DNA from: Terracidiphilus sp.
Lineage (GTDB): Bacteria; Acidobacteriota; Terriglobia; Terriglobales; Acidobacteriaceae
Assembly: GCA_035550015.1 (NCBI GenBank)
Contig: DASZRJ010000015.1
Location: 73,521 to 137,520, forward strand
Reading direction: 5' to 3'
Length of the DNA: 64,000 bases
The notes under the pieces were generated by a model. The model had not been told where the DNA came from, did no database searches, and saw only the letters and a list, made by a program, of their open reading frames with translations. Below, piece after piece: positions 5,885 to 23,879 of this stretch; the first letter of the stretch is position 1; each line of letters begins with the position of its first letter. The translations under genes and the position numbers were made by a program.

Positions 5885-7231
5885 CTACGAACGTTCCTGG
5901 AGGCCCACGTTTGCCTCTGTCTCTTCTGCAGTATGCGGTTGGCGTGACCAGCGCAAATAAGCAGCAAGATAAAGAATGCCTGTTCCGAGCAACAGAAGCG
6001 GTATCGGCCTGTCGAGCACAATAACCACAATCTTATTTAAATTTCCGGTTGTAGAAGCGAGAACAGGCCGAATCATGTGTTCGCGGATAGCTGTTGGAAT
6101 ATCCCCATTGATAAAGATCGCTAAAGTGGTTAACGTAAGCGCACATTTACCCAGAATGCCTCTTCGCGACCACAGCAAAGCACAGGCTGGGATACAGAGC
6201 AAGAGCATCCGAGCATCGTCCTGCCGATGGTACACGGGCAGCAGAGTGAGTGCCGAAATAGAGGCAAGCGCAATCCATGCTCCCTCAAGATTATCTCGCG
6301 CGCGAACCACCAGAACGATCCACGCGATGACAAAGGGGGCAATAAGGAAAATACTAGCCAGGTTATAGAAACCCGGCTCGTCCCATAGAACGCTGAACTC
6401 TGTCTGCATGTCCACGATGAAATCCGCCGAATAAGCGGAAGATGATTGCGGTCCAGGGTCGTTGATATCGCCCTGCGCCGTTGTAGCAGTCAGGTTGCGA
6501 TGTATTTCAGAGGGCCAATGCGGAGCCACGCGGCTCATCCAAAGAACACCGGGCAAACCGAACAGGATCGTTAACAGCAACACATACCAAGCTCGTTTGC
6601 GATTCAATGGGGTGCTCAACAGAAAGTACAACCAGATTAAGCCTGCATCATGCGGTTTGATAAGTAGACCAATTGCCAGACATACAAGCCCAACCCAGAC
6701 AAATCGATTGCTCAAGAGCAAACAGGCCGAGATTGCGATCATGGCAACTACCAATCCCGCTGTATTCCCCACATCAACCAGCATGATACTGGTCAAGAGA
6801 AACATACAAAGGAGCGTGGCGGAAATTAATGGCGCATTGTGTGCCGTGTGCCACCATATTACATAGGACGCGGTAACCAGCCCCAGTGCAAGAACTGCCA
6901 CCCATACAACTCGCGCAATATTCCAAGGAAGAAGAGCAAATGGGGCAATCACGATAAGGCCGGTCGGGAGATTGATGTAGGTTGTAACAACGCTCCTCTG
7001 TTTGGCGTCATCTTCGGTGCGATCGCCACCCTCTTCCCTGTAGACACGCAGAAATTCGTGCTCATCATACGGGTTTACACCTTGCATCAGGCAACGCGAC
7101 GCAAAATAGACTGCCTTGAAGTCCACAAACGCTGCAGACGGTGTCATAGCCATCGCCAGGCTGGCTAAGAGAAAAAGCACAGAACCAAGCGAGAGAAGGG
7201 TGATTCCGTCCCGTCGTGCACTTGCTGTCAT
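5885..7231 (-). CDS. Multi-pass membrane glycosyltransferase, GT87/DUF2029 (GT-C fold), paralog A
   Basis: DFKAVY near N-terminus, NPY, INLPT, KPH, about 10 hydrophobic segments; typical GT87/DUF2029 layout. Confidence 0.75.
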   Translation of the reverse strand: MTASARRDGITLLSLGSVLFLLASLAMAMTPSAAFVDFKAVYFASRCLMQGVNPYDEHEFLRVYREEGGDRTEDDAKQRSVVTTYINLPTGLIVIAPFALLPWNIARVVWVAVLALGLVTASYVIWWHTAHNAPLISATLLCMFLLTSIMLVDVGNTAGLVVAMIAISACLLLSNRFVWVGLVCLAIGLLIKPHDAGLIWLYFLLSTPLNRKRAWYVLLLTILFGLPGVLWMSRVAPHWPSEIHRNLTATTAQGDINDPGPQSSSAYSADFIVDMQTEFSVLWDEPGFYNLASIFLIAPFVIAWIVLVVRARDNLEGAWIALASISALTLLPVYHRQDDARMLLLCIPACALLWSRRGILGKCALTLTTLAIFINGDIPTAIREHMIRPVLASTTGNLNKIVVIVLDRPIPLLLLGTGILYLAAYLRWSRQPHTAEETEANVGLQERS

Positions 7232-7249
7232 GCCTGTCCTTGAATGTGG

Positions 7250-8038
7250 TTATGAGCGATGAGGCATCTGCGCGTAATAGTGAGGAGCAACTTTTCGACC
7301 ACTAGCTACATAACGCGGCGATTTTCTCAAGCCCATCTTATGTGCCACAAAATCGAACGTGGTACTAATTACTCCGAATCCATAAGTCATGCTTCTCCTG
7401 AAATTGATAGAAGACGCTTCCTTGAAATATTTGGTTGGACATGAAATCTCTCCAAGCCGGAAACCGAACATCACCGCCTGGGCAATCATCTGATTATCGA
7501 AAACAAAATCATCGGAGTTTTCCAACAGCGGCAGGGTCTCAAGAAGTTCACGAGAGAAGGCGCGAAATCCCGTATGGTATTCCGACAACTTCACACCCAG
7601 AAAGAGATTTTGGAAACCGGTTAGGAACCGATTCGCCACGTATTTATAACGCGGCATCCCGCCTTTGAGAGCTCCGCCGCCAAGAATACGCGAAGCCAGA
7701 ACCATGTCATACAGGCCGCTGGCAATCATGCTTGCCATTGCTGGAACCAGCAACGGAGTGTATTGATAGTCCGGATGAACCATCACGACGATATCAGCGC
7801 CCGCAGCGAGCGCTTCGCGGTAACAGGTCTGTTGATTGCGCCCATATCCGTAGTTGGAATCATGAACAAATGTTTGTACTCCCAGCTTTCTGGAAAGTTC
7901 AGCCGTTTGGTCTTTGCTCGAGTCATCAACGAGGATCTTGATGTCCACCAAGTCTGTCAGTTCATTCACCGTGACTTCGAGAGTCTTTTCGGCGTTATAC
8001 GCCGGCATCACTACTGCGACTCGTTTGCCGTTAATCAT
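7250..8038 (-). CDS. GT2 glycosyltransferase, polyprenol-phosphate-sugar synthase (DPM1-like)
   Basis: [38 protein letters not shown]; soluble 262 aa. Confidence 0.85.
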
Positions 8039-8125
8039 GGCGAACTCCCGCTCTCAACATCATTTCTATATGCCTTGGACGGCACTCCGAATATGCTTCT
8101 GTTTCTCTCGTCATGAAATCGAGAA

Positions 8126-9454
8126 TCACGAAGCACACCCCTTTGCCGAGGACCTTTCTCTCAGGAGCCACAAGTAGAAGGCTGCGAAAAAGAGTATGCA
8201 GACTGGAACAGGATTCTCAATTAAGGCAAGGAAAAACCTACTCCCTGTGAAGGCTGTCATACTTTGCAGCTTTTCAGCAAAAATCGCAATAATTGCTCCT
8301 GGAATGTCCGCGCTCGCAGTGAGAAGACACACTGTCAAAACGAGGGCTACTGCCCGGTAGCGGTGTGTCTTTTCCCAGAGTAATGCACAAGCAGGAATGA
8401 TGAGAAGCAGTAACTTTGCATCGTATTGCCTGTGGTACACGGGCAGCAAAGCGAGCGGAACAAGGCTCGCCATTCCCAACCAAAGACGTTCACTGGGATC
8501 TGGCGCTTTATGGAAGTAGTAACACCATGTGGCCAGGAGTAGTGCGGATAAGCCCATCGAAATCGAATTATAGAATTCAGGGTTATCATCAAAATTTGAG
8601 AGTAAAGTCTGCAAACTGATGATCCTGTTTACTCCATGATTTCCTGTTGACTGCGGTCCCGGGTCATTGATTCCACCTCTGGCGGAAGTCTGAGCAATGT
8701 TGCCCCTCCAATCCCTCAACCATTCTGGTGAAATTCGACTGATCCAGCCAACAGAAAGAACACAAAGAAGGAATGCAACGCTGAAAGCCTGAAGAGCTCT
8801 TTTGCGATAGTGCTTATCTACCAGCATACAGAGAAACCAAAGTACGCCTGCGACCTGTGGCTTCAAGGCCAGACCTATCGCCAAAGCCAATACTCCAGCA
8901 GCTTCAAGATACTTCTTTCGAAAACTCCAAAATGCAAAAATACTCAGTCCGATGACGCATGCGGAGATATTGCCCATTCTGTATAGGCTCTGACAATTCG
9001 CCATCAAAAATGCGATGAGGAAGAGTGACAAACGCGGTGAAAATTCGCCCGCCATCTTCCACACAAAGAACGCGCCCAAGGACATTGATGCAAACTGCAG
9101 AAAAATCCAGATGGCTGACGCGCTTGCCCATCCCAACCAAGTGAATGGCAAGACAAAAAGCAATGTTGTCGGGGGATTTACACAGATTGGAATTCCCTGA
9201 AGAAAATTTTGCAAGTCTCTCGGGGTTGTCGGAAATTCGCCATTTTCAACTTTGTAGCGGGCAAGAAATACCGCTTCGTTGTATGGGTTTTCGCCAGAGA
9301 CTGCACAGCGCGCAGCATAATACACGGCTCGAAAGTCAGGTAATCCAGCGATTCTGGAATGTATTCCCCACAAAAGGGAACTAAGCCCAAAGATTAGAAT
9401 GACCAACGCAGCTGTACGGTCCGATACGCGATCGATTCGTGTGCGATTCGTCAT
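8126..9454 (-). CDS. GT87/DUF2029 membrane glycosyltransferase, paralog B
   Basis: DFRAVY, NPY, VNPPT, KPQ, INDPGPQS, LLPVYHRQYD; colinear with paralog A. Confidence 0.75.
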   Translation of the reverse strand: MTNRTRIDRVSDRTAALVILIFGLSSLLWGIHSRIAGLPDFRAVYYAARCAVSGENPYNEAVFLARYKVENGEFPTTPRDLQNFLQGIPICVNPPTTLLFVLPFTWLGWASASAIWIFLQFASMSLGAFFVWKMAGEFSPRLSLFLIAFLMANCQSLYRMGNISACVIGLSIFAFWSFRKKYLEAAGVLALAIGLALKPQVAGVLWFLCMLVDKHYRKRALQAFSVAFLLCVLSVGWISRISPEWLRDWRGNIAQTSARGGINDPGPQSTGNHGVNRIISLQTLLSNFDDNPEFYNSISMGLSALLLATWCYYFHKAPDPSERLWLGMASLVPLALLPVYHRQYDAKLLLLIIPACALLWEKTHRYRAVALVLTVCLLTASADIPGAIIAIFAEKLQSMTAFTGSRFFLALIENPVPVCILFFAAFYLWLLRERSSAKGCAS

Positions 9455-9608
9455 CGTTTGGCATAAATCAAATCAACTTGAAAGGATGAGTAGTCTCAAG
9501 TTGCATTCCGATTCAATCATGATACCGTCTTCACGCTTCTCTGTATCTTAACTTTTGCAGACAAGACCTTTCAGGCACCCACGCAGTAATCTCATGCCCA
9601 AATGCAAA

Positions 9609-9633
9609 CCGGGAACCGCTTTGCGGTTCCCGG
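9609..9633 (-). terminator. Intrinsic terminator after flp pilin
   Basis: Perfect 11-bp stem CCGGGAACCGC-ttt-GCGGTTCCCGG, 22 nt past the flp stop, followed by TTTGCATTT on the minus strand. Confidence 0.8.
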
Positions 9634-9655
9634 CTGATTTCTATTGCCTTGACGA

Positions 9656-9850
9656 TTAAACGTAGGAGTTAAGTGTGGTCGAAATCTTGTTGAAGGCAGC
9701 ATTGATGCCAGTGGCAAGTTGCGACATACCGGCAGTCGCGCCGAAAGCGATCAGAGCAACGACGAGTGCGTACTCGACGAGGTCCTGGCCTTCTTCACGA
9801 TCCTTGAGTTCCTGCAGCTTGATCAACAGCTTGAGGTACAGGTTATTCAT
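9656..9850 (-). CDS. flp: Flp family pilin (Tad major pilin)
   Basis: 21-aa leader ending EEG, then QDLVEY (Flp motif with E+5/Y+6) and a hydrophobic helix; 43-aa mature peptide. Confidence 0.96.
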   Translation of the reverse strand: MNNLYLKLLIKLQELKDREEGQDLVEYALVVALIAFGATAGMSQLATGINAAFNKISTTLNSYV

Positions 9851-9908
9851 GAGTAGAGTCCTTTGCGTGATTTGGGGGTCGGCCTGTGGCCGCGTTTGCT
9901 ATATTGAC

Positions 9909-9924
9909 TGCAATTCTTTTGCCA
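9909..9924 (-). promoter_or_regulatory. Sigma54 (-24/-12) promoter of flp
   Basis: Minus strand TGGCAAAAGAATTGCA: GG-N10-GC with TGGCA and TTGCA flanks, about 60 nt upstream of the ATG; a sigma54 activator is encoded in the locus. Confidence 0.75.
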
Positions 9925-9940
9925 AATCCAAAATTCTGTC

Positions 9941-9953
9941 TAATCAATTGATT
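9941..9953 (-). promoter_or_regulatory. IHF-consensus site upstream of the flp sigma54 promoter
   Basis: Minus strand AATCAATTGATTA matches WATCAANNNNTTR exactly, at about -43 to -55 from the predicted start site, in an AT-rich tract. Confidence 0.55.
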
Positions 9954-10173
9954 TTCAATAACTTGGAAATCTATCGAGTACTGGATTGTATATATCCGTA
10001 TACATCATACTCTCCCTCGAACTTCGCGGTACTCATAGCCCAAAGGTTGGCAGACATACAACTTCTGGGGCACAACTAGCACAAAAGTTGTAGTTCGCGT
10101 CTCGGCATATTTTATGCATCGGCGTGTGAGAAAATTCGAAATCTAAAGCTGAAAGAACATAAGATATGTCGAG

Positions 10174-10539
10174 TTAACCTTCACTTCCATTTTCAATCGG
10201 CTGCATTTCCAGCAGGTCCCCACACTCTGTTTGTGATTCAGCAATTGCGCCGCACGGCAACTCCAGAATGGAATGTGCAGTAAGACAAGCGGAAAGGCGC
10301 CAAGGTGCTACGCAGCGCTTCACTTTCTTCACGCGAAGAGCGCGATCCAAGTAAATAAGGTCGATTGCAAAACGCATCCAAAAGGTATGAACGGACTCGC
10401 AGGGAACAATCCACAAGCCTCCGCCATGCTCCAGACTATCCCTACCTAACAGACCTTTCGAACGCAGCCTTGGGGTATCCGCAATTCTGAGGCGATCAGC
10501 CACAACTGAATTTCTGGACTTATTGAATACGCAATACAT
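10174..10539 (-). CDS. DUF192 domain protein (start likely ATG 10539; ORF extends to 10608)
   Basis: ADTPRLRSKGLLGR, GLWIVPCESVHTFWMRFAIDLIYLD, ILELPCG. N-terminus MYCVFNKSR aligns with FCVYNRNR of the 15487 paralog. Confidence 0.85.
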   Translation of the reverse strand: MYCVFNKSRNSVVADRLRIADTPRLRSKGLLGRDSLEHGGGLWIVPCESVHTFWMRFAIDLIYLDRALRVKKVKRCVAPWRLSACLTAHSILELPCGAIAESQTECGDLLEMQPIENGSEG

Positions 10540-10737
10540 CTCTGCAACTGGCCGCTTCCCTTGATTGAGCCGATCATTATGCCCAGTCAACATACTAAGT
10601 CTCCCCATTCGAAATATCAGTCTTCACACAATTGCCCTTGGAAGCATCACATTGCTAACAGGCGCATATTTACCACTGATCTTGGGCTATTCGCCGATCA
10701 TATTTCGCAGAGTTTTACAATTCCTTCGCAAAGAAAA

Positions 10738-10765
10738 CACCCCGGCAAATCTTCGTGCCGGGGTG
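10738..10765 (-). terminator. Intrinsic terminator after cpaC
   Basis: 10-bp stem CACCCCGGCA-N8-TGCCGGGGTG followed by TTTTCTTT on the minus strand. Confidence 0.75.
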
Positions 10766-10808
10766 CTGCTTAAATTTCTCAGTGGGGGTTGATTCGCGTC
10801 ACCCATTT

Positions 10809-12452
10809 CTACGGACCAGTACTGGAACCTCCAGAACCGCCCATCATGCTCGTCCCCGATCCGGAACCGGTATTCAGTTTTTCTTCTTTCTTCTCATTAA
10901 ACTGTTTCAGCTGCTCCACCGGAATTGTCGCGGGAGGCGGCGGCAATGTATTGGCTGGAGTTTTCTCATCGGGAGTGTACATTGGTATACCCGAATTCGG
11001 AGGAAGGAATGTCCGCGGGTACTTCAGTTGCGGGAGCGGCGCACCAGCTGGAATTGGTGAAACGATCTCCGGCGTTACCAGAACTATTAATTCTGTATTT
11101 GTCCGATTCCGTTGCATCGACTGGAAGAATTTTCCAAGGACAGGGATGTCTCCCAGGAACGGGATCTTCTGAAGGGTTTCAGTTTCACGATTGTCAAGCA
11201 GACCACCAATCGCAAAGCTCTGACCATCCTGCAACTCTACCTCGGTCTCGACCCGGCGCACGGTGATAGCGGGAACTACAAATCCTGAAATTGTAACGGC
11301 GTTCGAGAAGTCGAGCGCACTTACTTCAGGCGCAACCTGCAAGCGGATCGTACCGCGCGGCGTAACGGTCGGAATGAAGGCTAAGCGCACACCGTATTGC
11401 TTGAACTGAATGGTAACCGCACCGCCCACACCGCCCGAAGATCCTTGCACCATGGGGTAGGGATATTCACCGCCGGCCAGGAAGCTCGCTTGCTTTCCAT
11501 CTTCAGCCAATAGATTTGGCTCTGCCAGAACTTCTGCGAGTCCTTTGGTCTCAAGCGCTTTCAAGGTTGCACCCAAATTGAGACCCGGATAAAAGGCAAA
11601 CAGGTTTAACTGGTCTGAAAGAGTTGCAGTTGCGCTGTCTGAGCCGCTGGGGACAGTGACAGTTGGAGGCGAAAATTGCCCCGTCGTGGCTGTTCCAATC
11701 GTGTTGCCGAATCCGGTGCTGAAGATATTTAGCCCTAACGCATTGCTCTTATTCCGATCAATACTGGCAAAGCGAACCTTCAACAAGATCTGCGGCTCTG
11801 AATTCGGAACCACGACGTTAAGAAGATTCACTACCTTACCTGCTGACGATGCAATCTGAACAGCTCTGTCGGAGCTATTCAGATCATTGACAGTACCGCG
11901 CAGAAACACGGATCCACTCTCTTCAGACACACGCAAGTGCTGACCCGGGAGCTCGATCCTCAGCTGGCGTCTCACCGCATCCAGTGCATCGTTGATCGCG
12001 AGCATGCTCTCGCGCACCGTAAGATTAAAGAATTGGCGACCGCCGGAAACGTCCCACACAATAACGCTTGTTTCGCCAACCTTCTTGCCATTTATCAGCA
12101 CCTGGGTTGGGCTCACTGCGACGGCTTCGGCAATTTCTGCGCTGCCCACGGCGATTTGTGTTACAGGCTTGGCCATGTCCAAGACCACAGACTTACCGAC
12201 CGATACCGTAAGGTCGTTTGTCGAATCCTGAGTTGGCGCAGCTACCGGCCGTGATGGCGGAGGCGGGGGAGCAGGAGGTTCGTTCTGATCCTTGTTCGCC
12301 GTTGGTGGCTTTTCCTGGCCGGAGGCAGGAGCCTGGTCCGGATTCGTCGCCGGTGCCTGCCCGGCGTCCTGTGCCCAAAGCACCGGTCCTGAGCCGGAAA
12401 CAATCGCGAAAGCAATCGCATAAAAAAATGCAGCTCTTATTCTGGCTCTCAC
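10809..12452 (-). CDS. cpaC: Tad pilus secretin CpaC/RcpA
   Basis: Signal peptide, Pro-rich linker, pilus N-domain (AVAVSPTQVLINGKKVGETSVIVW), secretin domain (LAEPNL, FLAGGEYP, KIPFLGDIPVLGKFF, ELIVLVTP). Confidence 0.93.
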   Translation of the reverse strand: MRARIRAAFFYAIAFAIVSGSGPVLWAQDAGQAPATNPDQAPASGQEKPPTANKDQNEPPAPPPPPSRPVAAPTQDSTNDLTVSVGKSVVLDMAKPVTQIAVGSAEIAEAVAVSPTQVLINGKKVGETSVIVWDVSGGRQFFNLTVRESMLAINDALDAVRRQLRIELPGQHLRVSEESGSVFLRGTVNDLNSSDRAVQIASSAGKVVNLLNVVVPNSEPQILLKVRFASIDRNKSNALGLNIFSTGFGNTIGTATTGQFSPPTVTVPSGSDSATATLSDQLNLFAFYPGLNLGATLKALETKGLAEVLAEPNLLAEDGKQASFLAGGEYPYPMVQGSSGGVGGAVTIQFKQYGVRLAFIPTVTPRGTIRLQVAPEVSALDFSNAVTISGFVVPAITVRRVETEVELQDGQSFAIGGLLDNRETETLQKIPFLGDIPVLGKFFQSMQRNRTNTELIVLVTPEIVSPIPAGAPLPQLKYPRTFLPPNSGIPMYTPDEKTPANTLPPPPATIPVEQLKQFNEKKEEKLNTGSGSGTSMMGGSGGSSTGP

Positions 12453-13300
12453 TTTTTCTCTCCGGGCGCTTCAAATTTTTGTTCGGACTTCCTGGGACCG
12501 TTGTAGACGGTCACCGTGAAAGGTTCAGCCTTCTTGGGTGCCTTACTGCGGATAGGACCCAGCCGCGGCTTTTCCTTGGAAGCATTCGGGTTTGCAAAGA
12601 GATTAGCAACTGTTGTGCTCTGCACATCGGCGACCTTCGTGTCCAGCGGATTCCGGAGAACGAGCTGAATATGCGATTCCTGTCCGGCCAAAGCCAATAC
12701 CTGTGCCTGTTCCGGAGTGACGAGAAGATTCACCACCTGTACCTGCCGAGGCTTGCCTTCCTGATCCTTTTGAATGTCTGTACCGGCTGAAAGCACTTCA
12801 ATATTCTGGAGGATGGTTCGAATCTCTGTGTTTTGCTGTCCGCCACGCGCTTCCGGGGGAACTCCCGAGACCAGCACGTCCACACGCATACCTGGAGTCA
12901 CGAAGCCTGCAACACCAACTACCTGGTCAACCTTTACAGCGATAGCGCGCATTCCCTGCTTAATGGTTGCAGCCAGACCACCTCCGGAACCCTCGGGTGC
13001 CAAGCGGCTGTCCAGTACTGGTTCACCCTTATAGATCGTCGAAATTACACCGCGCCCGATTGCCTTCTTCGCATCGACGATTGCACCCGGAGGAGCAGTT
13101 CCAACCACCTGCACCGTCGTCAAATCCGGAGCGCTGATAATAGAACCAATTTGCAGGTCCGCCGCAGCTGCAACAACTGTCGTCGTTGCCTGCGTTTTGA
13201 CGGCTGCAATGCGGCTGCCTACCAACCTATACACAATAAAGGCTGACAGCACAGCGACGAGAAACGCACTCAGGAGAATTGTTAAAAGTCGTCGGTTCAT
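12449..13300 (-). CDS. cpaB: Flp pilus assembly protein CpaB/RcpC
   Basis: N-terminal TM, SAF domain, GMRAIAVKV, GVAGFVTPGMRVDVL, NIEVLSAG, LLVTPEQAQ; 4-bp overlap with cpaC. Confidence 0.93.
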   Translation of the reverse strand: MNRRLLTILLSAFLVAVLSAFIVYRLVGSRIAAVKTQATTTVVAAAADLQIGSIISAPDLTTVQVVGTAPPGAIVDAKKAIGRGVISTIYKGEPVLDSRLAPEGSGGGLAATIKQGMRAIAVKVDQVVGVAGFVTPGMRVDVLVSGVPPEARGGQQNTEIRTILQNIEVLSAGTDIQKDQEGKPRQVQVVNLLVTPEQAQVLALAGQESHIQLVLRNPLDTKVADVQSTTVANLFANPNASKEKPRLGPIRSKAPKKAEPFTVTVYNGPRKSEQKFEAPGEKK

Positions 13301-16473: not shown

Positions 16474-16800
16474 AGGCTCTCACCCGTCTACAAATATACG
16501 GTTTGAACTTCAACTTGCACCAAGCGGTTTTGCTATCTGCAACGCCCGGTCGAACCAAGGGGGATTAATTTTCCTTTCAGGAAAAGTGATTGGGACGGCC
16601 ACTGCACACTAGGCAAGTGAATTCATAAGCTCCCATGGAAGAGAAGGGCGCATCGGACTCTGGCGAGCGCCCCACGATTTGAAACACGGCCATCATAACG
16701 CGCCAAAAGACGGCACGCTGGCGGCCATTCACATATCAGGACGTTCCGCGCATCGAACATGCCGCAACAAACATCCAATTTCAATAAATCGCCCAGGTCT

Positions 16801-16896
16801 TTACTTGACCCTGGTGCGGCGACGCTGGATCAGAATAACCAGCACAATGACAAACAGAACCGCGGCAACTGCCCGGATGATTGTTTCATTGCTCAT
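16801..16896 (-). CDS. 31-aa single-TM small protein MSNETIIRAVAAVLFVIVLVILIQRRRTRVK (not in ORF track)
   Basis: Manual translation from ATG 16896 to TAA 16801. Purine-rich RBS GAAGGGAG upstream, 17 nt after the tadC stop; hydrophobic core plus basic tail. Confidence 0.65.
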   Translation of the reverse strand: MSNETIIRAVAAVLFVIVLVILIQRRRTRVK

Positions 16897-16913: not shown

Positions 16914-17825
16914 TCAGTGTGAGAAAAACTTACCAAACGATTGGGCCATCGTGATCATTGCCGGTCCGAGCGTGACAAGGAACAACGATGGAAAGATAAA
17001 CAAAACCAACGGAAATAGGAGCTTGACAGAGAGCTTTGCTGCCTTCTCTTCCACTTCCTGAATCCGTTGAGTCCGAAGCGTATCCGAATGAACACGCAAA
17101 GTTTTGCCTATGCTGGTTCCAAACTGCTCCGCCTGAATCAGCATTGTGACAAGATTCCGGATTGAGTCAACATCGGTGCGTTCCGCCAAGTGTTTCCATG
17201 CCTCGGAACGGGCGCGACCAGCTCGCTGCTCCAGAGCAACGATGCCGAGTTCATCGCTTAAAGCAGGCTGGGCCTTCTTCAGTTCATCGGCAGTGCGCGC
17301 CGTGGCTTGATCAAGGCTCAGTCCGGCTTCCACACAAATAATCAGCATATCCAGCACATCGGGCAGTCCCTTGCGCATTTCCGCCTGCCGATTTGCAATC
17401 TTTCGGCCCAACCAGAAATCCGGGCCGAGAAAACCGAGAGCAGCACATATCGCAAGGACAAAGAACGGACTGAACCGGTAGACACCCGTGGCCAATGCGA
17501 TGATCAGAAGCACGACCGGAACAAGAAATTTGGCGCCGTAAAAATACTTCACGGCCGAGTCTTGGCGATAACCGGCTCGAATCAGACGCTGCTGCTGTAC
17601 CGAGGATTCTTGCTCGGATTTGGGGATGAACTTTTCAACCGATTCCACCATGCCACCGAGAACATCGCGGGTCTCGGCAAGTGTCGAAGCAATGCTCTTC
17701 TTCTTCGGCCGTGGATAAAGGGCGGTCGTAATGCGCTGCTGGATTGCGTCGCGGTAGAAGAACAGCAATCCACCGCTGGCAATCAGCAGGAACATCACGG
17801 CAAACGAAATGATTGCAAATGCCAT
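16914..17825 (-). CDS. tadC: Tad inner-membrane platform protein TadC
   Basis: LPDVLDMLIICVEAGLSLDQA, EQFGTSIGKTLR, AAKLSVKLLFPLVLFIFP. Confidence 0.93.
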   Translation of the reverse strand: MAFAIISFAVMFLLIASGGLLFFYRDAIQQRITTALYPRPKKKSIASTLAETRDVLGGMVESVEKFIPKSEQESSVQQQRLIRAGYRQDSAVKYFYGAKFLVPVVLLIIALATGVYRFSPFFVLAICAALGFLGPDFWLGRKIANRQAEMRKGLPDVLDMLIICVEAGLSLDQATARTADELKKAQPALSDELGIVALEQRAGRARSEAWKHLAERTDVDSIRNLVTMLIQAEQFGTSIGKTLRVHSDTLRTQRIQEVEEKAAKLSVKLLFPLVLFIFPSLFLVTLGPAMITMAQSFGKFFSH

Positions 17826-17834
17826 TTTTGCCTC

Positions 17835-18806
17835 TTACACGTCCAGGTTAACGATCTTACGAATAATCAATCCGCCGATAATGATCATGATGCCGGCCGC
17901 ATACATCAGCTTGATGCCGATGGGAGTCGTCCAGAGAATCCTCATCATGGTCGGATTGATGGTGTACAAAAGGCACCCGAGCACGATAGGGAGCAACGTA
18001 AGAATGACGCCCGTCAATCGTCCCTGGGCCGTATGTGTCAACACTTGACGCTTCAAGCGAAATCGTTCGCGAATGACAGAGGAGGTCTTCTCCAGCACTT
18101 CCGCCAGATTACCGCCGCTTTCGCGTTGAATCAGAATTGCGGTCGCCACGATCTTCAGATCCTGCACGGGCATCCGGGCAATCATGTTTTCCATCGCGAC
18201 TTTGAGCTCAAGACCGTAGTTCTGCTCGTCGAAGCAGGTGCGGAACTCAGTTCCGACCGGATCCGGGCACTCGCGCGATACAAGGCCGGTTGCCGCATTC
18301 AGGCTGTGTCCCACGCGAAGAGCATTCACAATCAGATCAATTGCTTCGGGAAGCCCTTGCTCAAACTTGGACAAACGCTTGTTGCGCTTAAAAACCACAT
18401 AAATCAATGGAGCTGCTGCAGCCACCAGGCCAATGAGCAAGCCGAACAAAATTGCATTCGTCCTGTAATAGACAAGCCAGCCCGCGACAAAGAAGCATCC
18501 GAAACAGAATAAGAGTAACCCGCCAACAGTCCATTTCAAGTCTGCCTGATACAACAGCCTGCGCAGACGTGGAGCCAGTTCCAACTGAGCAAGTGTGCGA
18601 TCCAGCCAGGGAATCGAACTCATCAGCTCGTTCTTGCGCACGTCCACCAAAAGGTCGCTGTTATCGGGCTTGCCCACTGCAAGCGCCGAGTCCAACCGAG
18701 CCATCACTTTCTTGCCTTGTTCCGCCTTGCCTGGGCCCGCCGCAATCATCAGCAGTGCGACGACCACAAAGGCAGCCAGAAAGACGAGGACAATGATGAT
18801 TAACAT
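17835..18806 (-). CDS. tadB: Tad inner-membrane platform protein TadB
   Basis: LPEAIDLIVNALRVGHSL, IQRESGGNLAEVL, TAQGRLTG. Confidence 0.93.
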   Translation of the reverse strand: MLIIIVLVFLAAFVVVALLMIAAGPGKAEQGKKVMARLDSALAVGKPDNSDLLVDVRKNELMSSIPWLDRTLAQLELAPRLRRLLYQADLKWTVGGLLLFCFGCFFVAGWLVYYRTNAILFGLLIGLVAAAAPLIYVVFKRNKRLSKFEQGLPEAIDLIVNALRVGHSLNAATGLVSRECPDPVGTEFRTCFDEQNYGLELKVAMENMIARMPVQDLKIVATAILIQRESGGNLAEVLEKTSSVIRERFRLKRQVLTHTAQGRLTGVILTLLPIVLGCLLYTINPTMMRILWTTPIGIKLMYAAGIMIIIGGLIIRKIVNLDV

Positions 18807-18822: not shown

Positions 18823-20103
18823 TTAGCTCACTTCCGTTGCGCGCTCAAACATAGTAGGTGGCAGGAAGATGCCAGCCGTGCGCAATTGATCGAGGAAGCG
18901 GGGACGAATGTGGCTCGGCTGGAAAACACCCTGCACCTTGCCATTTGGTCCAATTCCCTTCTTCTGGAACGTGAAAATCTCCTGCATCGAAATCACATTC
19001 TCTTCCATGCCGGTGATTTCGTGGATGCTCACGCACTTGCGGCTGCCGTCGCTCAGACGCGTACACTGAATGACCACTGTCAATGCAGAAGCAATCTGCT
19101 GACGCAGTGTCTTTTCCGGCATATTCAGGTTGCTCATAGCAACCATTGATTCCAAACGGGTTAAAGCATCGCGGGCTGTGTTGGCGTGAATCGTGGTCAT
19201 CGATCCTTCGTGACCCGTGTTCATGGCCTGCAACATATCGAAAGCTTCCTCGCCGCGGCACTCACCGATGATGATGCGATCAGGACGCATACGAAGGCAG
19301 TTGATTAGCAGCTGGCGCTGACGAACCGCGCCCTGACCTTCCACGTTTGGCGGACGCGTTTCAAGCCGCACGATGTTTTCCTGTGCGAGCTGTAGTTCGG
19401 CGGCGTCCTCAATTGTAATGACGCGCTCGTTCTGCGGGATGTACTGCGAAAGAATGTTGAGGAAGGTGGTTTTTCCTGCGCCGGTACCACCGGAAATCAG
19501 AACGCTGAGTCGCGCGCGCACCGCAGCCGACAACAACTCCATCATTTCAGCCGAGATGCTCTTCAACTGCACAAGCTGATTCGCAGCCAGGGGACCGGTG
19601 CCGAATCGGCGAATGGAGAGCGATGGGCCGTCCAGAGCCAATGGTGGAATAATTGCGTTCACACGGGAGCCGTCAGGCAAGCGAGCGTCAACCATCGGCG
19701 ACGATTCATCCACGCGACGTCCGACGCGCGACACGATGCGATCGATAATCTGCAGCAGGTGCCTGTCATCGCGGAACGAAGCATCGGCCCGCGTTAACAT
19801 GCCGCCTTTTTCGATGAAGACGTGGTCTTTATCGTTGACGAGGATATCGGAGATCTTGGGATCCTTGAGCAGGGGCTCCAAGGGACCCAGTCCAAAGACC
19901 TCGTCGAGCAAATCGGTTTGAATCTTCTCCTGCTCATCAAAGCTGAGCGGCACACGCCGTTCGCTAATGATCTCGTTGATGATGCTCGAGACTGCCTGGC
20001 GTGCCTGGCTCGAATTGATGCGCGACAGCTTCTCCAAGTCGAGCTTGGAGAGGAGGGTTCTGTGCACTTCCGCTTTGAAATTCTCAAGATTCATAGTTGC
20101 CAC
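18823..20103 (-). CDS. tadA: Tad assembly ATPase TadA/CpaF
   Basis: Walker [10 protein letters not shown], Asp box [14 protein letters not shown], His box [11 protein letters not shown]. Confidence 0.97.
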
Positions 20104-20131: not shown

Positions 20132-21328
20132 TTACTTGAAAAGGCTGAATCCCCTTCTCTTTTCCGACTTCGGCTCCATGCCGCAGGCGGCACGGGCCAT
20201 ATCTTGAATTGCTTTTGAAATCGCCGAGTCCTCCGACGCCAGTGGAATTGCTTCATTCTGCATGCGGCGCACCGTGTAATAGTCGCTCGGTATTCTCCAT
20301 TGAATCGGCCGTGTCAGCGCTTTTTCAATATGCTCTTCGTCCACTCCCATCGACCGGCTGACGTAGCGGTTCAACACGATCTCTAGCTTGGGAGTGCTGG
20401 ATTTGAAAAATTCTGAAATCAACCGGTGCGAGTTGCGAAGTTCCGGAATTCCAGCCTGCATCACCATATAGACCGTGTCTGCACGCTGGAACCATGTGGC
20501 GCCAGTCAGGTCGAATCGCGACCCTGCATCGACCACCACCCAGTCAAACTCCTGCCTTGCAACAGTGAGCAGCTTATCGATGGCGTCATTGCTTGCCTGC
20601 ACATGCGGAAAGCGTCCAGGCGCTCCAAGTACAGGCAAACCCGAGGCATGCTTCATCAGGAGCTTATTGAAAAAGTTGGAATCGAGCCGTTCCGCGTTCT
20701 GTAATGCATCTCCCGTGGAAAACTGCGGCGTCAGTCCAAGACTCAAGGCGGCATCGCCAAGGGGAAGATCCAGGTCGATCAACACCGCGCTTTGGCCGCA
20801 CTCCTGCACCAGGGAAACTGCAAAGTTGCATGCCACCGTGGTGACGCCAGAGCCGCCCTTGCCGCCCATGAAGACAAGTAGCTTACCGCCGGACTTCTGC
20901 TGCGATTTGGGCACAGCCTTCCGCGTGCTCGCGCGATTGAGAGCCTCAGACAGAGCGTTCTGATCGATGGGGTCGGACAGGTATTCGCGAGCACCTGCCC
21001 GCATGGCGCGCACAATCCAGTTTGGATCCACGCGCGACGCATACACAATCACTGTCGATTGTCCCTGCGTAACAATCTCTTCCACCAGAGAAAGAGCGTA
21101 TTCCGGATCGGCTTCAAGATCGATAATGACCGCGTCAAAGCCCTGCTCCAGCAGACGCGGAACATCCTTCAAGGTTGGAGGATAAGTTGAGTACTCACGC
21201 ACCATCGCCGCATGCGACGTGGCAAGAGCGCTTGCCACAGTCCTGCGCCGCTGTTCGTGCGGTCCAATTAGCGCCAATTTCAGTACATGGGCGTCAAGTG
21301 GATCGGGTTCTAAGTTTGTCGTATCCAT
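20132..21328 (-). CDS. cpaE: CpaE/TadZ pilus localisation protein (receiver-like + MinD/ParA-like ATPase)
   Basis: Receiver-like N-domain (AVIID, AMRAGAREYL), deviant Walker A KGGSGVTT, LIDLDL, VVVDAG. Confidence 0.9.
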   Translation of the reverse strand: MDTTNLEPDPLDAHVLKLALIGPHEQRRRTVASALATSHAAMVREYSTYPPTLKDVPRLLEQGFDAVIIDLEADPEYALSLVEEIVTQGQSTVIVYASRVDPNWIVRAMRAGAREYLSDPIDQNALSEALNRASTRKAVPKSQQKSGGKLLVFMGGKGGSGVTTVACNFAVSLVQECGQSAVLIDLDLPLGDAALSLGLTPQFSTGDALQNAERLDSNFFNKLLMKHASGLPVLGAPGRFPHVQASNDAIDKLLTVARQEFDWVVVDAGSRFDLTGATWFQRADTVYMVMQAGIPELRNSHRLISEFFKSSTPKLEIVLNRYVSRSMGVDEEHIEKALTRPIQWRIPSDYYTVRRMQNEAIPLASEDSAISKAIQDMARAACGMEPKSEKRRGFSLFK

Positions 21329-21430: not shown

Positions 21431-21946
21431 TCAATGAGAAAAGAAAGAGAACAGGGTACCAATGGCAATTGCCGGCGCATACGGCATCTTTCTCGCTTTG
21501 GGATTGGAAAGCACCAAATTTTCTGATGGCTTCGATCCGTGTCCCTTCCAGCCAAAAAGCAAGTCGCCCGCGCCGGTAAGCATCTCTCCCAGAAAACCTC
21601 CCCAGACCGCCATACCCAGTGCAATCAAGCCTCCAGCCATCGCGGTTACCACGATCGCAATCAGCATCTGTCCCGGGCCTATCCAGGCTCCAATGGCGGC
21701 ACATAACTTCACGTCGCCCATTCCCATGCCGCCCATGAATGCCAAAATGCCAAATACCAGCAGCCCTAGCCCCAGCCCGGCAAGACTATCTTTTAGGCCG
21801 TGCCATCCTCCCGCCCAGGTTGAGAGTGTGATCCCGGCAAGCAGGAATGAGAAATTCAGCCAATTTGGGATACGGCGGGTCCGCATATCGGTGTAGGTGG
21901 CCACGGTAATGAGCACCAGCACGGGCCACCAGGCATACGAATGCAA
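21431..21946 (-). CDS. cpaA: Prepilin peptidase CpaA/TadV (A24); start re-called to TTG 21946
   Basis: Catalytic YTD...RRIPN and GMGDVKL, MPYAPAIA. SD GGAGG precedes TTG-CAT-TCG. The longer track start overlaps a sigma54 box. Confidence 0.88.
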   Translation of the reverse strand: MHSYAWWPVLVLITVATYTDMRTRRIPNWLNFSFLLAGITLSTWAGGWHGLKDSLAGLGLGLLVFGILAFMGGMGMGDVKLCAAIGAWIGPGQMLIAIVVTAMAGGLIALGMAVWGGFLGEMLTGAGDLLFGWKGHGSKPSENLVLSNPKARKMPYAPAIAIGTLFSFFSH

Positions 21947-21990
21947 AAGGAGCCTCCTCCCCTTCTTCTTCTGGCAAACACAGGCTTTCA

Positions 21991-22006
21991 AGCAATTGTC
22001 GCTCCA
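21991..22006 (-). promoter_or_regulatory. Sigma54 (-24/-12) promoter of cpaA-cpaE-tadABC
   Basis: Minus strand TGGAGCGACAATTGCT: GG-N10-GC with TTGCT, 45 nt upstream of the re-called start. Confidence 0.55.
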
Positions 22007-22064
22007 ATTCGCCTGATGTCAAGTGCGCCTGAATTCAATGTGTTACGTGTGTGCTTGCTTTGAC

Positions 22065-22086
22065 AAGGGCCTCGGGCCCTTTCTTT
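22065..22086 (+). terminator. Terminator-like hairpin with plus-strand U-tract in a divergent intergenic region
   Basis: AAGGGCC-TCG-GGCCCTT followed by TCTTT; no plus-strand gene ends nearby. Confidence 0.4.
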
Positions 22087-22484
22087 GCAAAGAGGTAATG
22101 TGACGCTCGATTGAGCTCACGCCGTATAACGCTGCAGCGCCCATATCAGGTACCTAAAGTTGCAACTGGATGCTAAATCCCGTAACGGTGCGCATACTAC
22201 CCGGGCTCGTTACTATGGAGCAATAGGCGATTGGTATTCCCGTTGAATTACGGCTTTAGAACACCGATTATAATGGCAACCAATCACAGGGAAGGTTGTT
22301 TATGAGAATGCGTTTTTTCCTCCTGAAGAGTTCCAGAACGCATTGACATAGTAGACTTTCCACACAGAGTAGATAGTAGAGTTTGTGTCCTGGTTCTCCT
22401 GCAGGGTATGGTTTTTTGTTTTCTATTGCCGCAACCGACACAAGAATTGCATTGGCACTTCCAAGGAAGACGGAAGACAAACGG

Positions 22485-23879
22485 ATGATACGAATTGGAC
22501 TTATTTCCGAAGATCCGCAAATGCACATGCTTCTGTCCTCAGGCATGGGCAGAGAATTCCGCGTCTTCCGAGAATCCAATATTAATGGCATTGAAAAGAA
22601 ACTGGCTTCTTCCGGCTATGAAGTGCTCATCCTCGACTTCGCCACAATGGCCGATGTGACAGCCAATCATCTTGAACGAATTGAAACGATTCTGGCCTTC
22701 CGCGTCCCCATGATTGTTATGGCCGAAGAGGAACTGCAGACGAAAGCCGATGAAGTCATTGAAATGGGCGCCCTTCGCAGTTGCCGTCGTCCACCTTCAA
22801 TTCGCGACCTGAAAGAAATGGTACTTCGCGCCAAGGAATCCTGTGATGGCGAATCACCCGCGCAGAATTCTTCAGCGATCATCGACTCCGATTCCAGCTG
22901 CGACCGTATGTTGGGCAGCAGCACCCGCATGCGTGCCGTTTACCGACAGGTACGGCAGGTAGCCAATATCAACGCCGCCGTACTCGTACAGGGAGAAAGC
23001 GGCTCGGGCAAGGAGCTTATCGCGCGCGCGATTCACAATCTTGGCTCCCGCGCCGGCAAACCCTTCATTGCTGTCTCTTGCAGCGCAATTCCGGAAACGC
23101 TCATTGAGTCTGAGCTTTTTGGCCACGAAAAGGGCGCTTTCACCGGCACTGTTGGCTCACGTGAGGGCTTTTTTGAACAGGCGCAGGATGGAACACTTTT
23201 CCTTGATGAAATCGGCGATCTGAGCCCATTCACTCAGGTAAAGCTACTGCGCGTCCTTCAGGAAATGGAGTTCAATCGACTCGGCAGCACTCGTATCATT
23301 CCGCTGCGGGCTCGCCTCATCTTTGCCACGCACCAGAATCTTCCCAAACTCATCGCCGAGGGTAAATTCCGCCAGGACCTCTATTACCGCATCAACGTGA
23401 TTCGCATCGAAGCTCCTCCGCTGGCTGAGCACCCTGAAGATATTCCGCAGATTGTCTCGCATTTCCTGCGCCAGTACTCCACGCTCTTTGACAAGCCAAT
23501 GGATTCGATCGAACCTGAAGCCTTGGCCGTTCTGCAGAGCTACTCGTGGCCCGGAAATGTGCGCGAGCTGGAAAATCTCGTCCAGCGCGCAATTGCCATG
23601 GCGCCCGGACGTGTTTTACGCGCTGAAGACCTGCCCATCACCCTGCCCTCCGACAAGGTGATAGAGTTCAACGAAATCAATCCCGAAGGCTCGTTTGAAG
23701 AACAGTTGCGTGAATACAAAATCAAGATTGCAACGGATGCTGTTCGCCAGCACAACGGCAACAAGACCCTTGCCGCCCGCAGTCTCGGCATCTCGCGCGC
23801 CTACCTGCACCGGCTCATCCGGCCTACGGATTCGGAAACCCCCTTCGATCAGGATGACGTGGGCTCGGCATCGATGTAG
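22485..23879 (+). CDS. Sigma54-dependent enhancer-binding protein (NtrC/Fis family) with atypical receiver domain
   Basis: GESGSGKE, ESELFGHEKGAFTGT, LFLDEI, FRQDLYYRIN, WPGNVRELEN, Fis-type HTH (GNKTLAARSLGISR). Start re-called to ATG 22485. Confidence 0.92.
   Translation: MIRIGLISEDPQMHMLLSSGMGREFRVFRESNINGIEKKLASSGYEVLILDFATMADVTANHLERIETILAFRVPMIVMAEEELQTKADEVIEMGALRSCRRPPSIRDLKEMVLRAKESCDGESPAQNSSAIIDSDSSCDRMLGSSTRMRAVYRQVRQVANINAAVLVQGESGSGKELIARAIHNLGSRAGKPFIAVSCSAIPETLIESELFGHEKGAFTGTVGSREGFFEQAQDGTLFLDEIGDLSPFTQVKLLRVLQEMEFNRLGSTRIIPLRARLIFATHQNLPKLIAEGKFRQDLYYRINVIRIEAPPLAEHPEDIPQIVSHFLRQYSTLFDKPMDSIEPEALAVLQSYSWPGNVRELENLVQRAIAMAPGRVLRAEDLPITLPSDKVIEFNEINPEGSFEEQLREYKIKIATDAVRQHNGNKTLAARSLGISRAYLHRLIRPTDSETPFDQDDVGSASM

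Follow-up and report, generated by a model that had tools for sequence, protein, structure and literature searches.

The window, meaning the whole 64,000-nucleotide stretch of DNA that was analysed, probably encodes a functional pilus system of the Tad class (type IVc) from an Acidobacteriaceae bacterium of soil, equipped with lineage-specific add-ons; this reading, with the mechanism proposed below, is held with moderate confidence. The core set is complete, with prepilin peptidase, TadZ, TadA, TadB, TadC, CpaB, the CpaC secretin and Flp. Throughout the family this core also has four additional genes fixed within it, which encode a standalone DUF192 protein, a DUF192-PilZ fusion, a 31-aa membrane peptide and a protein resembling TonB. 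All genes that a sequence-only reading had named between 5885 and 23879 were found where it had placed them, and most exceed the Pfam gathering scores. The features are given below by their positions in the window.

5885-7231, minus strand: GT87a, GT-C membrane glycosyltransferase (Pfam PF09594, 39.5 bits, cutoff 25)
7250-8038, minus strand: GT2, polyprenyl-phosphate hexose synthase-like, predicted donor-making step (Pfam Glycos_transf_2, 66 bits)
8126-9454, minus strand: GT87b, second GT-C glycosyltransferase, in the slot directly downstream of flp (Pfam PF09594, 53.4 bits)
9609-9633, minus strand: terminator-like hairpin 3' of flp (11 bp, 9 of them GC; RNA contigs stop at 9643-9646)
9656-9850, minus strand: flp, 64-aa Flp prepilin, leader ...REEG followed by QDLVEYAL (Pfam Flp_Fap PF04964, 33.1 bits, cutoff 32.2)
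9880-9892, minus strand: small leader hairpin, close to where the flp mRNA begins, CGGCC-ACA-GGCCG
9909-9924, minus strand: flp promoter of the sigma-54 type (-24/-12), TGGCAAAAGAATTGCA
9948-9966, minus strand: IHF-like site with one mismatch, lying upstream of the flp promoter (conserved block AAGTTATTGATTTCTAAT)
10174-10608, minus strand: standalone leaderless DUF192 (Pfam, 68 bits; likely start Met24, at 10539)
10736-10767, minus strand: terminator-like hairpin 3' of cpaC (12-bp stem, then a T-rich tail)
10809-12452, minus strand: cpaC/rcpA secretin (Pfam Secretin, 166 bits, and T2SS-T3SS_pil_N)
12449-13300, minus strand: cpaB/rcpC (Pfam RcpC, 102 bits, and SAF)
13858-15462, plus strand: TonB-like inner-membrane-anchored protein, 534 aa, divergent from cpaB
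15487-16473, minus strand: DUF192-PilZ fusion, predicted c-di-GMP receptor (PilZ, 28.2 bits, cutoff 22.5)
16801-16896, minus strand: 31-aa single-pass membrane peptide, just after tadC
16914-17825, minus strand: tadC (Pfam T2SSF)
17835-18806, minus strand: tadB (Pfam T2SSF)
18823-20103, minus strand: tadA/cpaF ATPase (Pfam T2SSE, 213 bits)
20132-21328, minus strand: cpaE/tadZ, receiver-like domain and ParA/MinD ATPase
21431-21991, minus strand: cpaA/tadV prepilin peptidase, A24 domain only (Pfam Peptidase_A24, 70.7 bits)
22022-21995, minus strand: sigma-70-like promoter of cpaA and the machine operon (promoter scan)
22383-23879, plus strand: NtrC-type sigma-54 activator, divergent from cpaA (Pfam Sigma54_activat, 227 bits, AAA_lid_14 and HTH_8)

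The locus appears to be organised in about seven transcription units. The Tad cluster is real, and contigs from RNA-labelled runs, whose RNA nature is presumed, indicate that it is expressed. Six such runs gave flp-only contigs of about 250 nt, all within 9643-9896, with a depth above that of neighbouring fragments, and the contigs are identical to 9643-9889 of the window. Their 5' ends at 9876-9896 fit a flp transcript start near 9898, just downstream of the -24/-12 element. The glycosyltransferase block, the TonB-like gene and both DUF192 genes are without RNA-labelled contigs. DNA runs, unlike the RNA-labelled ones, cover the locus evenly.

The -24/-12 element lies about 74 nt (71-81) before the flp ATG in 44 of 54 loci and occurs upstream of flp only. 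An exact WATCAANNNNTTR IHF consensus is found 40-49 nt upstream of the -24 in 19 of 47 loci and is almost absent elsewhere in 400 nt. The leader hairpin is present in nearly all orthologous leaders, with compensatory changes at two of its four pairs. The adjacent activator, with a likely start near 22485 and a GAFTGT loop, occupies the same position in only 6 of 60 genomes, the most distant ones, L072 and L079, among them. The machine had been called sigma-54-activated from the sequence; this stands for the pilin gene, but not for the machine operon, which has a sigma-70-like promoter, and the activator is rarely kept beside it. In the proposed mechanism, pilin supply would be set at transcription by an NtrC-type activator, adjacent in this genome, acting on the flp -24/-12 promoter. 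DNA bending at the IHF-like site would assist the activator, and the machine genes would be transcribed from ordinary promoters.

Synteny was compared in 80 species-representative genomes, all of one family (Acidobacteriaceae), and the counts were taken from the 60 genomes with full flanks. The divergently transcribed TonB-like gene and the standalone DUF192 gene each lie within the tad core in 57 of these 60, the 31-codon peptide does so in 53, and the DUF192-PilZ gene adjoins tad genes in 58. With some 57 of the 60 related genomes showing it, the arrangement is far from chance. The sequence-only reading had proposed a variant Tad machine and had made it depend on the accessories being syntenic with tad in relatives; they are, and the proposal is upheld. 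That this combination was undescribed was borne out in part: Tad pilins under sigma-54 control have been described before (PMC3333781), as have PilZ genes in the vicinity of tad loci (Bdellovibrio, bioRxiv 10.64898/2026.07.08.737194), whereas no paper linking DUF192 to pili was found.

At the sequence level, the 31-aa peptide is under purifying selection. Its roughly 70 orthologues almost always have exactly 31 codons, an ATG start and a GAAGGGAGA ribosome-binding site, and mismatches by codon position number 204/124/745.

The DUF192 part of the fusion scores 23.3 bits, under the cutoff of 27, and was confirmed by hhalign against the standalone DUF192 (98.7%) and by its fold: two DUF192 structures, 3PJY and 3M7A, are matched by the N-domain. 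The fusion lacks residues C47, E48, H51, C85 and H89 of the standalone form. In its PilZ domain, the RRxxxR and DxSxxG motifs are invariant across 44 homologues, and the Foldseek matches are the c-di-GMP-bound PilZ domains of Alg44, PA0012 and YcgR. At the level of sequence and fold, these results support the c-di-GMP gating suggested earlier.

The standalone DUF192 also matches PDB 3M7A and 3PJY by profile. No leader sequence was found in any of the 49 DUF192 proteins checked, and the Tad-linked subfamily carries the motif KGLLGR...P-x-x-S-V-H-T-[FL]-x-M-R-F. Unrelated bacteria have leaderless DUF192 genes within or next to their Tad genes as well, on plasmids of Moraxella, Streptomyces and Alkaliphilus, and the same holds for 19 of 24 non-Acidobacteriaceae metagenome loci (flank of at least 3 kb; GC 0.35-0.73). 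The leaderless DUF192 may be an overlooked pilus component. Its site of action would be cytoplasmic, and the TadA motor, the TadB/C platform or the peptidase would be the part of the machine it works on. The fusion, a DUF192 paralogue that has lost the conserved residues and gained PilZ, would dock in the same way and make pilus activity responsive to c-di-GMP. We infer this docking role purely, because to our knowledge DUF192 has no known biochemical function.

The identity of the TonB-like protein is plausible from sequence and fold comparison. The full-length protein has no Pfam match, and its C-terminus alone reaches 19.3 bits to TonB_C, under the cutoff of 24.6. The best Foldseek matches are TonB C-terminal domains, none reaching an E of 0.001, and a sequence-profile search of the PDB found nothing. 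Among the 120 homologues listed of 778, none has a Pfam domain or a functional name. A TM helix spans residues 68-91, in which S74 and H78 (SxxxH) are invariant in 36 homologues; the SxxxH anchor of TonB contacts ExbBD. In the preferred reading, the protein would span the periplasm from this anchor to a TonB-type C-terminal domain, contact an outer-membrane partner, probably the secretin, and replace the missing TadD/RcpB-type components. It may be powered by an ExbBD-type motor encoded elsewhere, and may be coupled to the proton-motive force (PMF). Somewhat less likely, though credible, is that the protein is a passive periplasmic scaffold, or a peptidoglycan or secretin tether, standing in for TadD/RcpB-type parts without PMF coupling. 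ExbB and ExbD genes are absent from the 64-kb window, the TonB-like end has a further conserved domain, rich in beta structure, ahead of it (residues 380-450), and the family is restricted to its own lineage, all of which suits such a scaffold; the invariant SxxxH pair argues against it.

The glycosyltransferase block is a separate case. The accessories had been described as interleaved with the tad genes, which fails for the GT87-GT2-GT87 block here, sited at the flp-distal end between flp and polA, although GT87 is found between DUF192 and flp in some relatives. Characterised GT87 enzymes are lipoglycan mannosyltransferases. In NCBIfam, GT2 scores best against dolichyl-P hexose transferase, AglJ and PpgS, in each case far under the equivalog cutoff. 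It is plausible, from gene content and position, that the cassette glycosylates the Flp pilin. GT2 would load hexose onto polyprenyl phosphate; in the periplasm the GT87 enzymes would pass the sugar on, and its most likely acceptor would be the C-terminal tail of Flp, which is rich in Ser/Thr. A swappable cassette would then give strain-specific pilus glycans. In most genomes flp is flanked by membrane glycosyltransferases, and the cassette has been exchanged from one relative to another: 44 of 60 genomes have GT87 homologues no more than 10 kb away from the tad core, the GT2 ortholog is kept in only 16 of 60, and the closest relative (L001) has an unrelated 571-aa polytopic protein in the GT87b slot.

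The cassette could instead modify another envelope molecule, such as a lipoglycan, LPS, an exopolysaccharide, or the secretin or CpaB, and sit by flp only since genes for surface structures cluster and are exchanged together. This is the less probable reading, though a substantial one. It draws on the lipoglycan role of the GT87 family, on the variable cassette with GT2 often missing, on a fall in GC to 0.47-0.50 across 6-10 kb that suggests a mobile island, on abundant flp RNA with no contigs across the glycosyltransferase genes, and on an orthologue alignment in which Flp tails are Ser/Thr-rich with or without a nearby GT87. The Caulobacter Tad pilin, which shows no glycan density (PMC10710030), also counts against Flp glycosylation. 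What speaks for the pilin as target is that about 40 genomes, differing among themselves in gene order, have a GT-C-type gene directly next to flp, a pattern as in Pseudomonas, where pilin-specific glycosylation genes lie downstream of pilA (TfpW, bioRxiv 10.1101/2020.04.19.049825).

A Tad-like apparatus that serves contact-dependent killing, secretion, DNA uptake or some other end than adhesion is unlikely. The window holds no TadD and no minor pilins (TadE/F/G), and the DUF192-bearing Tad loci of Moraxella and Streptomyces adjoin RHS or polymorphic toxin genes; against this, the Tad locus here and its surroundings contain no genes for toxins or effectors, and no transcript is more abundant than flp, which fits a major filament subunit. 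That the four accessories are unrelated neighbours kept together by shared ancestry is very improbable: with a single family supplying all 80 genome loci, descent could partly explain the synteny, but gene order is kept although protein identity among loci drops to 36-50%, the genes flanking the block (polA, the activator and hyp334) are not retained in the 60 genomes, and DUF192 independently adjoins Tad genes in other phyla and on GC-diverse metagenome contigs.

Compared with the Caulobacter Cpa and the Aggregatibacter and Pseudomonas Tad systems (type IVc), the locus shares the core set, including the Flp G/xxxxEY processing site, an A24-only peptidase, TadZ/CpaE, a single TadA/CpaF ATPase, two platform proteins, CpaB/RcpC and the CpaC/RcpA secretin. 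It differs in its split into about seven units, in lacking RcpB as well as TadD and TadE/F/G within 64 kb, in the four added genes, and in control of flp by sigma-54 rather than CtrA or PprB. In PilR-PilS systems and with Desulfovibrio DVU2114, which acts on Tad-type pilins (PMC3333781), a -24/-12 promoter likewise directly precedes the major pilin gene, with an NtrC-family activator nearby; here the activator has a degenerate receiver-like N-terminus and no kinase gene beside it, and its linkage is lost in most relatives while the promoter is kept.

In Pseudomonas type IVa pili (the GT-C arabinosyltransferase TfpW; TfpO/PilO), a polytopic GT-C-type enzyme also adjoins the major pilin gene, and the strain-variable cassette, lipid-linked donor and periplasmic action are further likenesses (bioRxiv 10.1101/2020.04.19.049825; 10.1101/150227). 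The pilus class is different, Flp pilins having no globular domain, and the enzyme here is a GT87 or an unclassified 571-aa protein with a predicted role in glycosylation. Similarly, TonB and Myxococcus GltG/GltJ (PMC11761067, PMC9946355) have an N-terminal SxxxH anchor, an extended periplasmic spacer of low complexity and a C-terminal fold of the TonB type, with the gene inside a surface-appendage locus; the protein here has no ExbBD/AglRQS-type motor nearby, a C-terminal domain too diverged for Pfam and the extra conserved domain ahead of it.

As with PilZ-FimX-PilB, MshE and YcgR on the flagellar motor, a predicted c-di-GMP-binding module is encoded with the machine, with RxxxR and DxSxxG intact and the PilZ fold confirmed. 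In this locus the fusion partner of PilZ is a degenerate DUF192 domain, an architecture not found described in the literature, and the intact paralogue lies in the same locus. The Tad-linked form shares fold and family with DUF192/UPF0127 (PF02643; PDB 3M7A, 3PJY), but the Tad-linked subfamily is leaderless, whereas a signal peptide or a membrane anchor is present in the members of known structure and in typical ones.

The locus at 5885-23879 encodes a real Tad pilus system that is expressed, and its accessory genes form a lineage-specific, strongly conserved set. Gene identities were assigned by ORF listing, translation, and Pfam and NCBIfam scans of the window. Every gene named in the sequence-only reading was confirmed in this way, and the anatomy described there was right. 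The features are as follows.

Features of the tad locus
5885-7231, minus strand: GT87 gene (GT87a), Pfam 39.5 bits (cutoff 25); polA comes next
7250-8038, minus strand: GT2 gene, from the ORF listing and Pfam/NCBIfam scans
8126-9454, minus strand: GT87 gene (GT87b), Pfam 53.4 bits (cutoff 25)
9633-9609, minus strand: terminator-like hairpin 3' of flp
9656-9850, minus strand: flp pilin gene, PF04964, 33.1 bits (cutoff 32.2)
10174-10608, minus strand: standalone DUF192, Pfam 68 bits
10767-10736, minus strand: terminator-like hairpin 3' of cpaC
10809-12452, minus strand: cpaC (RcpA secretin), Pfam
12449-13300, minus strand: cpaB (RcpC), Pfam
13858-15462, plus strand: TonB-like 534-aa protein, convergent with DUF192-PilZ and divergent from cpaB
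15487-16473, minus strand: DUF192-PilZ fusion
16801-16896, minus strand: 31-codon ORF
16914-17825, minus strand: tadC, T2SSF platform protein
17835-18806, minus strand: tadB, T2SSF platform protein
18823-20103, minus strand: tadA (TadA/CpaF ATPase), Pfam/NCBIfam scans
20132-21328, minus strand: cpaE/tadZ, Pfam/NCBIfam scans
21431-21991, minus strand: cpaA, 186 aa, sole domain Peptidase_A24, 70.7 bits
Upstream of cpaA, minus strand: sigma-70-like promoter, from a promoter scan
22383-23879, plus strand: NtrC-type sigma-54 activator, divergent from cpaA

The Tad core thus comprises one TadA/CpaF ATPase, two T2SSF platform proteins, TadZ/CpaE, the RcpA/CpaC secretin and RcpC/CpaB. The CpaA peptidase has no methyltransferase domain, and the Flp processing motif EEG-QDLVEY (G/xxxxEY type) is kept across the aligned flp orthologues. 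The TadD pilotin and the TadE/TadF/TadG pseudopilins, which are accessory in current Tad system models, were absent among ORFs of at least 110 aa in the 64-kb window and may lie elsewhere in the genome. The hairpins, the sigma-70-like promoter, the intergenic gaps and the strand changes suggest that the locus is split into about seven transcription units. Since Rfam gave no family match across the whole window, a c-di-GMP riboswitch is absent from it. The remainder of the window consists of housekeeping genes. At 23996-25000 (plus strand), the gene for a 334-aa protein separates the tad locus from an ABC transporter and is there in 27 of 60 relatives; the protein combines a signal-like N-terminus and a single TM helix with a spacer rich in Pro, Thr and Gln, and its C-terminal domain belongs to no known family. 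A Pfam-negative 522-aa multi-pass membrane protein with GT-C-type-like topology (34092-35660, plus strand) is positionally unrelated to the tad locus.

Conservation was measured in relatives. A scan of one genome per species gave 148 loci, and the best 80 of the 148 were taken with 10-kb flanks; nearly all of these carry an Acidobacteriaceae or Terracidiphilus label. One (L052) comes from a cultured bacterium, Occallatibacter savannae AB23, and contains flp, DUF192, DUF192-PilZ and the TonB-like gene along with the core. Every window protein was mapped onto the 80 loci by tblastn, and counts were made on the 60 Acidobacteriaceae loci with full flanks. cpaA and tadC were each present in 58/60, the TonB-like protein and the standalone DUF192 each in 57/60, the 31-aa ORF in 53/60, flp in 47/60, GT87 in 44/60, a GT2 ortholog in 16/60 and the activator in 6/60. 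Gene order and strand are retained even though protein identity drops to 36-50%, and the genes flanking the tad block are not retained. The sequence-only reading would have been refuted by a lack of synteny between the accessory genes and tad in relatives; such a lack is contradicted for DUF192, DUF192-PilZ, the TonB-like protein and the 31-aa peptide, and is partly the case for GT2 and the activator.

The sequence-only reading did not contain what proved most interesting, namely that Tad genes of unrelated bacteria are accompanied by a subfamily of leaderless DUF192 proteins. The standalone DUF192 matched structure 3M7A by profile (E = 1.2e-5), and a plasmid search seeded with it returned 16 records. 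DUF192 lies between tadC and tadE on a Moraxella bovis plasmid, after the prepilin peptidase in Alkaliphilus, and as the last gene of a cpaF-tadB-tadC-flp-tadE-tadE-tadG-LysM operon on the Streptomyces plasmids (four inspected of 13 records). The Halomonas match has an N-terminal anchor and no Tad linkage, and no further taxa came from plasmid searches that used the Moraxella and Alkaliphilus proteins as queries. The Tad-linked proteins share the motifs KGLLGR and P-x-x-S-V-H-T-[FL]-x-M-R-F. A metagenome scan with the DUF192 motif gave 80 loci, of which 54 are not of Acidobacteriaceae type by similarity (GC 0.35-0.73). Flanks of 3 kb or more were available for 24 of these non-Acidobacteriaceae loci; core tad genes were present in the flanks of 19 and came within 500 bp in 11 of the 19, usually in the order tadA-tadB-tadC-DUF192. 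No hydrophobic leader was seen in any of the 49 metagenome DUF192 proteins with a resolvable N-terminus. No paper assigning DUF192 a function or tying it to pili was found in the literature.

A Cys/His cluster in the acidobacterial DUF192 (C47, H51, C85, H89) was considered as a metal site. It cannot define the function of the family, because the Moraxella, Streptomyces and Alkaliphilus proteins retain only H51/T52. RHS-repeat or polymorphic-toxin (HINT) genes follow the DUF192-bearing Tad-like loci of the Moraxella bovis plasmid NZ_CP087831 and the Streptomyces plasmid NZ_CP107897, and an Imm21 immunity gene is found at the S. albidoflavus plasmid locus. The proximity of these genes to plasmid Tad loci hints that the Tad machinery there could serve in toxin delivery.

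The DUF192-PilZ fusion has 537 database relatives, and the few with a named source come from Terracidiphilus. The PilZ domain scored 28.2 bits in Pfam against a cutoff of 22.5. Within the RxxxR and [D/N]xSxxG motifs, R212, R216, D239, S241 and G244 are invariant among 44 homologues, and R211 nearly so. Foldseek searches with the AlphaFold model (mean pLDDT 77) placed the C-terminal domain close to the c-di-GMP-bound PilZ domains of Alg44, PA0012 and YcgR (target TM-scores 0.58-0.70). The invariant motifs and the matching fold support the c-di-GMP potential that had been predicted for this protein. The N-terminal domain resembles the DUF192 structures 3PJY and 3M7A in Foldseek, and hhalign establishes its homology with the standalone DUF192 (98.7%). 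Its Pfam DUF192 score is 23.3 bits, under the cutoff of 27, and the invariant residues of the standalone protein are missing from it. We read the fusion as a degenerate docking copy bearing a predicted c-di-GMP sensor. Second, divergent copies of DUF192-PilZ occur in two relatives' loci (L049 and L078), and L049 shares its chromosome with a tad-linked copy, L018. Since both second copies stand away from tad genes, the fusion has spread beyond the pilus locus.

A very large number of bacteria use Tad pili to attach to surfaces. If DUF192 travels with Tad genes in distant lineages, it becomes a concrete candidate for switching or regulation of the single Tad ATPase, and in Acidobacteriaceae this candidate component also exists as a predicted c-di-GMP-sensing fusion. 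We propose, with more doubt than conviction, that leaderless DUF192 may be a general, unrecognised cytoplasmic component of Tad/Flp systems in Acidobacteriota, Pseudomonadota, Actinomycetota and Bacillota, and that the Acidobacteriaceae copy was duplicated and fused to PilZ, which would bring c-di-GMP input through a DUF192 docking surface to a single bidirectional Tad motor.

The 31-aa ORF has an ATG start codon preceded by a GAAGGGAGA ribosome-binding site, lies 19-50 nt 3' of tadC in most loci, and has exactly 31 codons almost always among about 70 orthologues. Mismatches among the orthologues number 204, 124 and 745 at codon positions 1, 2 and 3. The predicted product spans the membrane once and has a basic C-terminal end (IQRRRTRVK); the ORF is a real gene. 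A contig from one RNA run (X24, depth 7) covers 16544-16733, in the 328-bp non-coding gap between this ORF and DUF192-PilZ. The gap was considered as a structured RNA element and dropped despite the RNA contig: apart from a terminator-like stem, its column identity in relatives is 43%. Poor conservation of the gap makes it likely that the contig represents untranslated sequence, 3' or 5'.

Sigma-54 activation had been claimed for the system; it is supported for flp and not beyond the pilin gene. A sigma-54-type element with -24 GG and -12 GC, TGGCAAAAGAATTGCA, lies at 9924-9909 on the minus strand, 74 nt before the flp ATG. The window contains 41 such -24/-12-like matches against 42 expected, which is chance level, so only positional conservation across loci carries weight. 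A match 70-79 nt before the ATG is present in 44/54 loci, always ahead of the first flp copy and of no other gene, which points to a promoter at a fixed position. In 19/47 loci the -24 element is preceded, at 40-49 nt, by an exact IHF consensus, which occurs nearly nowhere else in 400 nt. A motif near the start of cpaA, which recurs in just 11/71 loci, was rejected. In Desulfovibrio, Tad-type pilins are already known to be under sigma-54 control (PMC3333781).

The activator itself has an intact AAA+ domain with a GAFTGT loop (GAFTGA-type; Sigma54_activat 227 bits). It occupies the cpaA-adjoining position in only six of 60 genomes. Since two of the six (L072 and L079) belong to the most distant loci, linkage to tad may have been ancestral and lost later. 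In two metagenome loci not of Acidobacteriaceae type (L143, at 7300-13300, and L103), sigma-54 activator homologues stand beside a leaderless DUF192 and tad genes, and the order in L143 is activator-DUF192-...-cpaA-cpaB-cpaC-cpaE. The activator-Tad-DUF192 association may recur outside Acidobacteriaceae.

Short contigs over 9643-9896 were recovered in six probable-RNA runs and contain the flp ORF and its leader, with nothing beyond. They are identical to the window in the four RNA-labelled runs compared, and their depth is 12-25 in three RNA-labelled runs. Fragments of cpaC, cpaB, tadC, the 31-aa ORF, cpaE and the activator are mostly of depth 2-10, with one cpaB fragment at about 20; the RNA run type is a guess, and zero depth elsewhere does not mean that RNA was absent. 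DNA runs cover the whole tad locus evenly. The 5' limits of the RNA-run contigs, which are assembly limits and not mapped 5' ends, fall at 9876-9896, and the predicted start is at about 9898, some 12 nt after the -12 GC. A hairpin, CGGCC-ACA-GGCCG, lies at 9880-9892 (minus strand), just inside the predicted flp mRNA and within a few nucleotides of its start. A leader hairpin (CCAGNC...GNCTGG) is present in nearly all of the 80 relatives' loci, with compensatory changes in 2/4 pairs, and may be a 5' stabiliser of an abundant pilin mRNA. Family-wide conservation of the locus, together with pilin mRNA in RNA-labelled runs, makes it probable that Acidobacteriaceae, which are abundant and poorly studied soil bacteria, use this pilus as a main means of attachment.

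The full-length TonB-like protein had no Pfam or NCBIfam match, and among the 120 listed of its 778 relatives none has a Pfam domain or a functional name. Its C-terminus in isolation matched TonB_C at 19.3 bits, under the Pfam cutoff of 24.6, and a PDB sequence-profile search with this domain gave noise only. In the AlphaFold model, a TM helix at 68-91 (pLDDT 87-90) and the last 150 residues are predicted with confidence, with disorder between them; the spacer at about 95-375 (pLDDT <50) is rich in P, G, N and S and has no classical Pro-Glu/Pro-Lys repeat. The best Foldseek matches are TonB C-terminal domains, all with E >0.001: the P. aeruginosa TonB-FoxA complex (6i97_D, probability 1.00), followed by E. 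coli TonB, FusB and Neisseria TonB. S74 and H78 of the membrane helix are invariant among 36 homologues and form an SxxxH pair, the mark of the TonB membrane anchor. Given this anchor, the Foldseek matches and the sub-cutoff TonB_C match, "TonB-like" is a fair description. ExbB and ExbD, with which TonB works, were absent from the 64-kb window, and the PMF coupling raised in the sequence-only reading is as yet unproven. The protein provides a testable parallel to surface machines elsewhere that transmit force in a TonB-like way.

The GT2 product is nearest to polyprenyl-phosphate sugar synthases, and every NCBIfam score is far under the equivalog cutoffs. In relatives, flp almost always adjoins one or two GT87 genes, with or without GT2, or else a gene for a 571-aa polytopic protein, which replaces GT87b even in a 91%-identical relative (L001, 17115-18830). 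This 571-590-aa family lies directly 3' of flp, in the GT87b slot, also in L009, L012, L016, L023, L051, L065 and L071. Neither Pfam nor PDB gave a match for the 571-aa protein, and profile comparison showed no similarity to GT87; from its topology we guess that it is a GT-C enzyme, and the family may be an unclassified pilin-modifying enzyme. GC is 0.47-0.50 over GT87-GT2-GT87-flp (6001-10000) against 0.55-0.60 around it, and this drop fits a horizontally exchanged cassette. DNA run X2 contains a co-occurring strain with about 20 differences in 190 bp (9592-9782), over the flp 3' half and terminator region, and sparse differences elsewhere in the tad locus. The cluster fits diversifying selection or recombination on an exposed pilin tail.

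The Flp tails are Ser/Thr-rich in all orthologues aligned, and Flp, which the sequence-only reading took to be glycosylated, is a candidate, as yet unproven, acceptor for the GT cassette. The Caulobacter Tad pilin shows no glycan (PMC10710030). In their adjacency to flp and in the Ser/Thr-rich tails, the GT genes here parallel the pilin-adjacent glycosylation cassettes of Pseudomonas, and the swappable cassette beside flp provides a testable parallel to pilin glycosylation.
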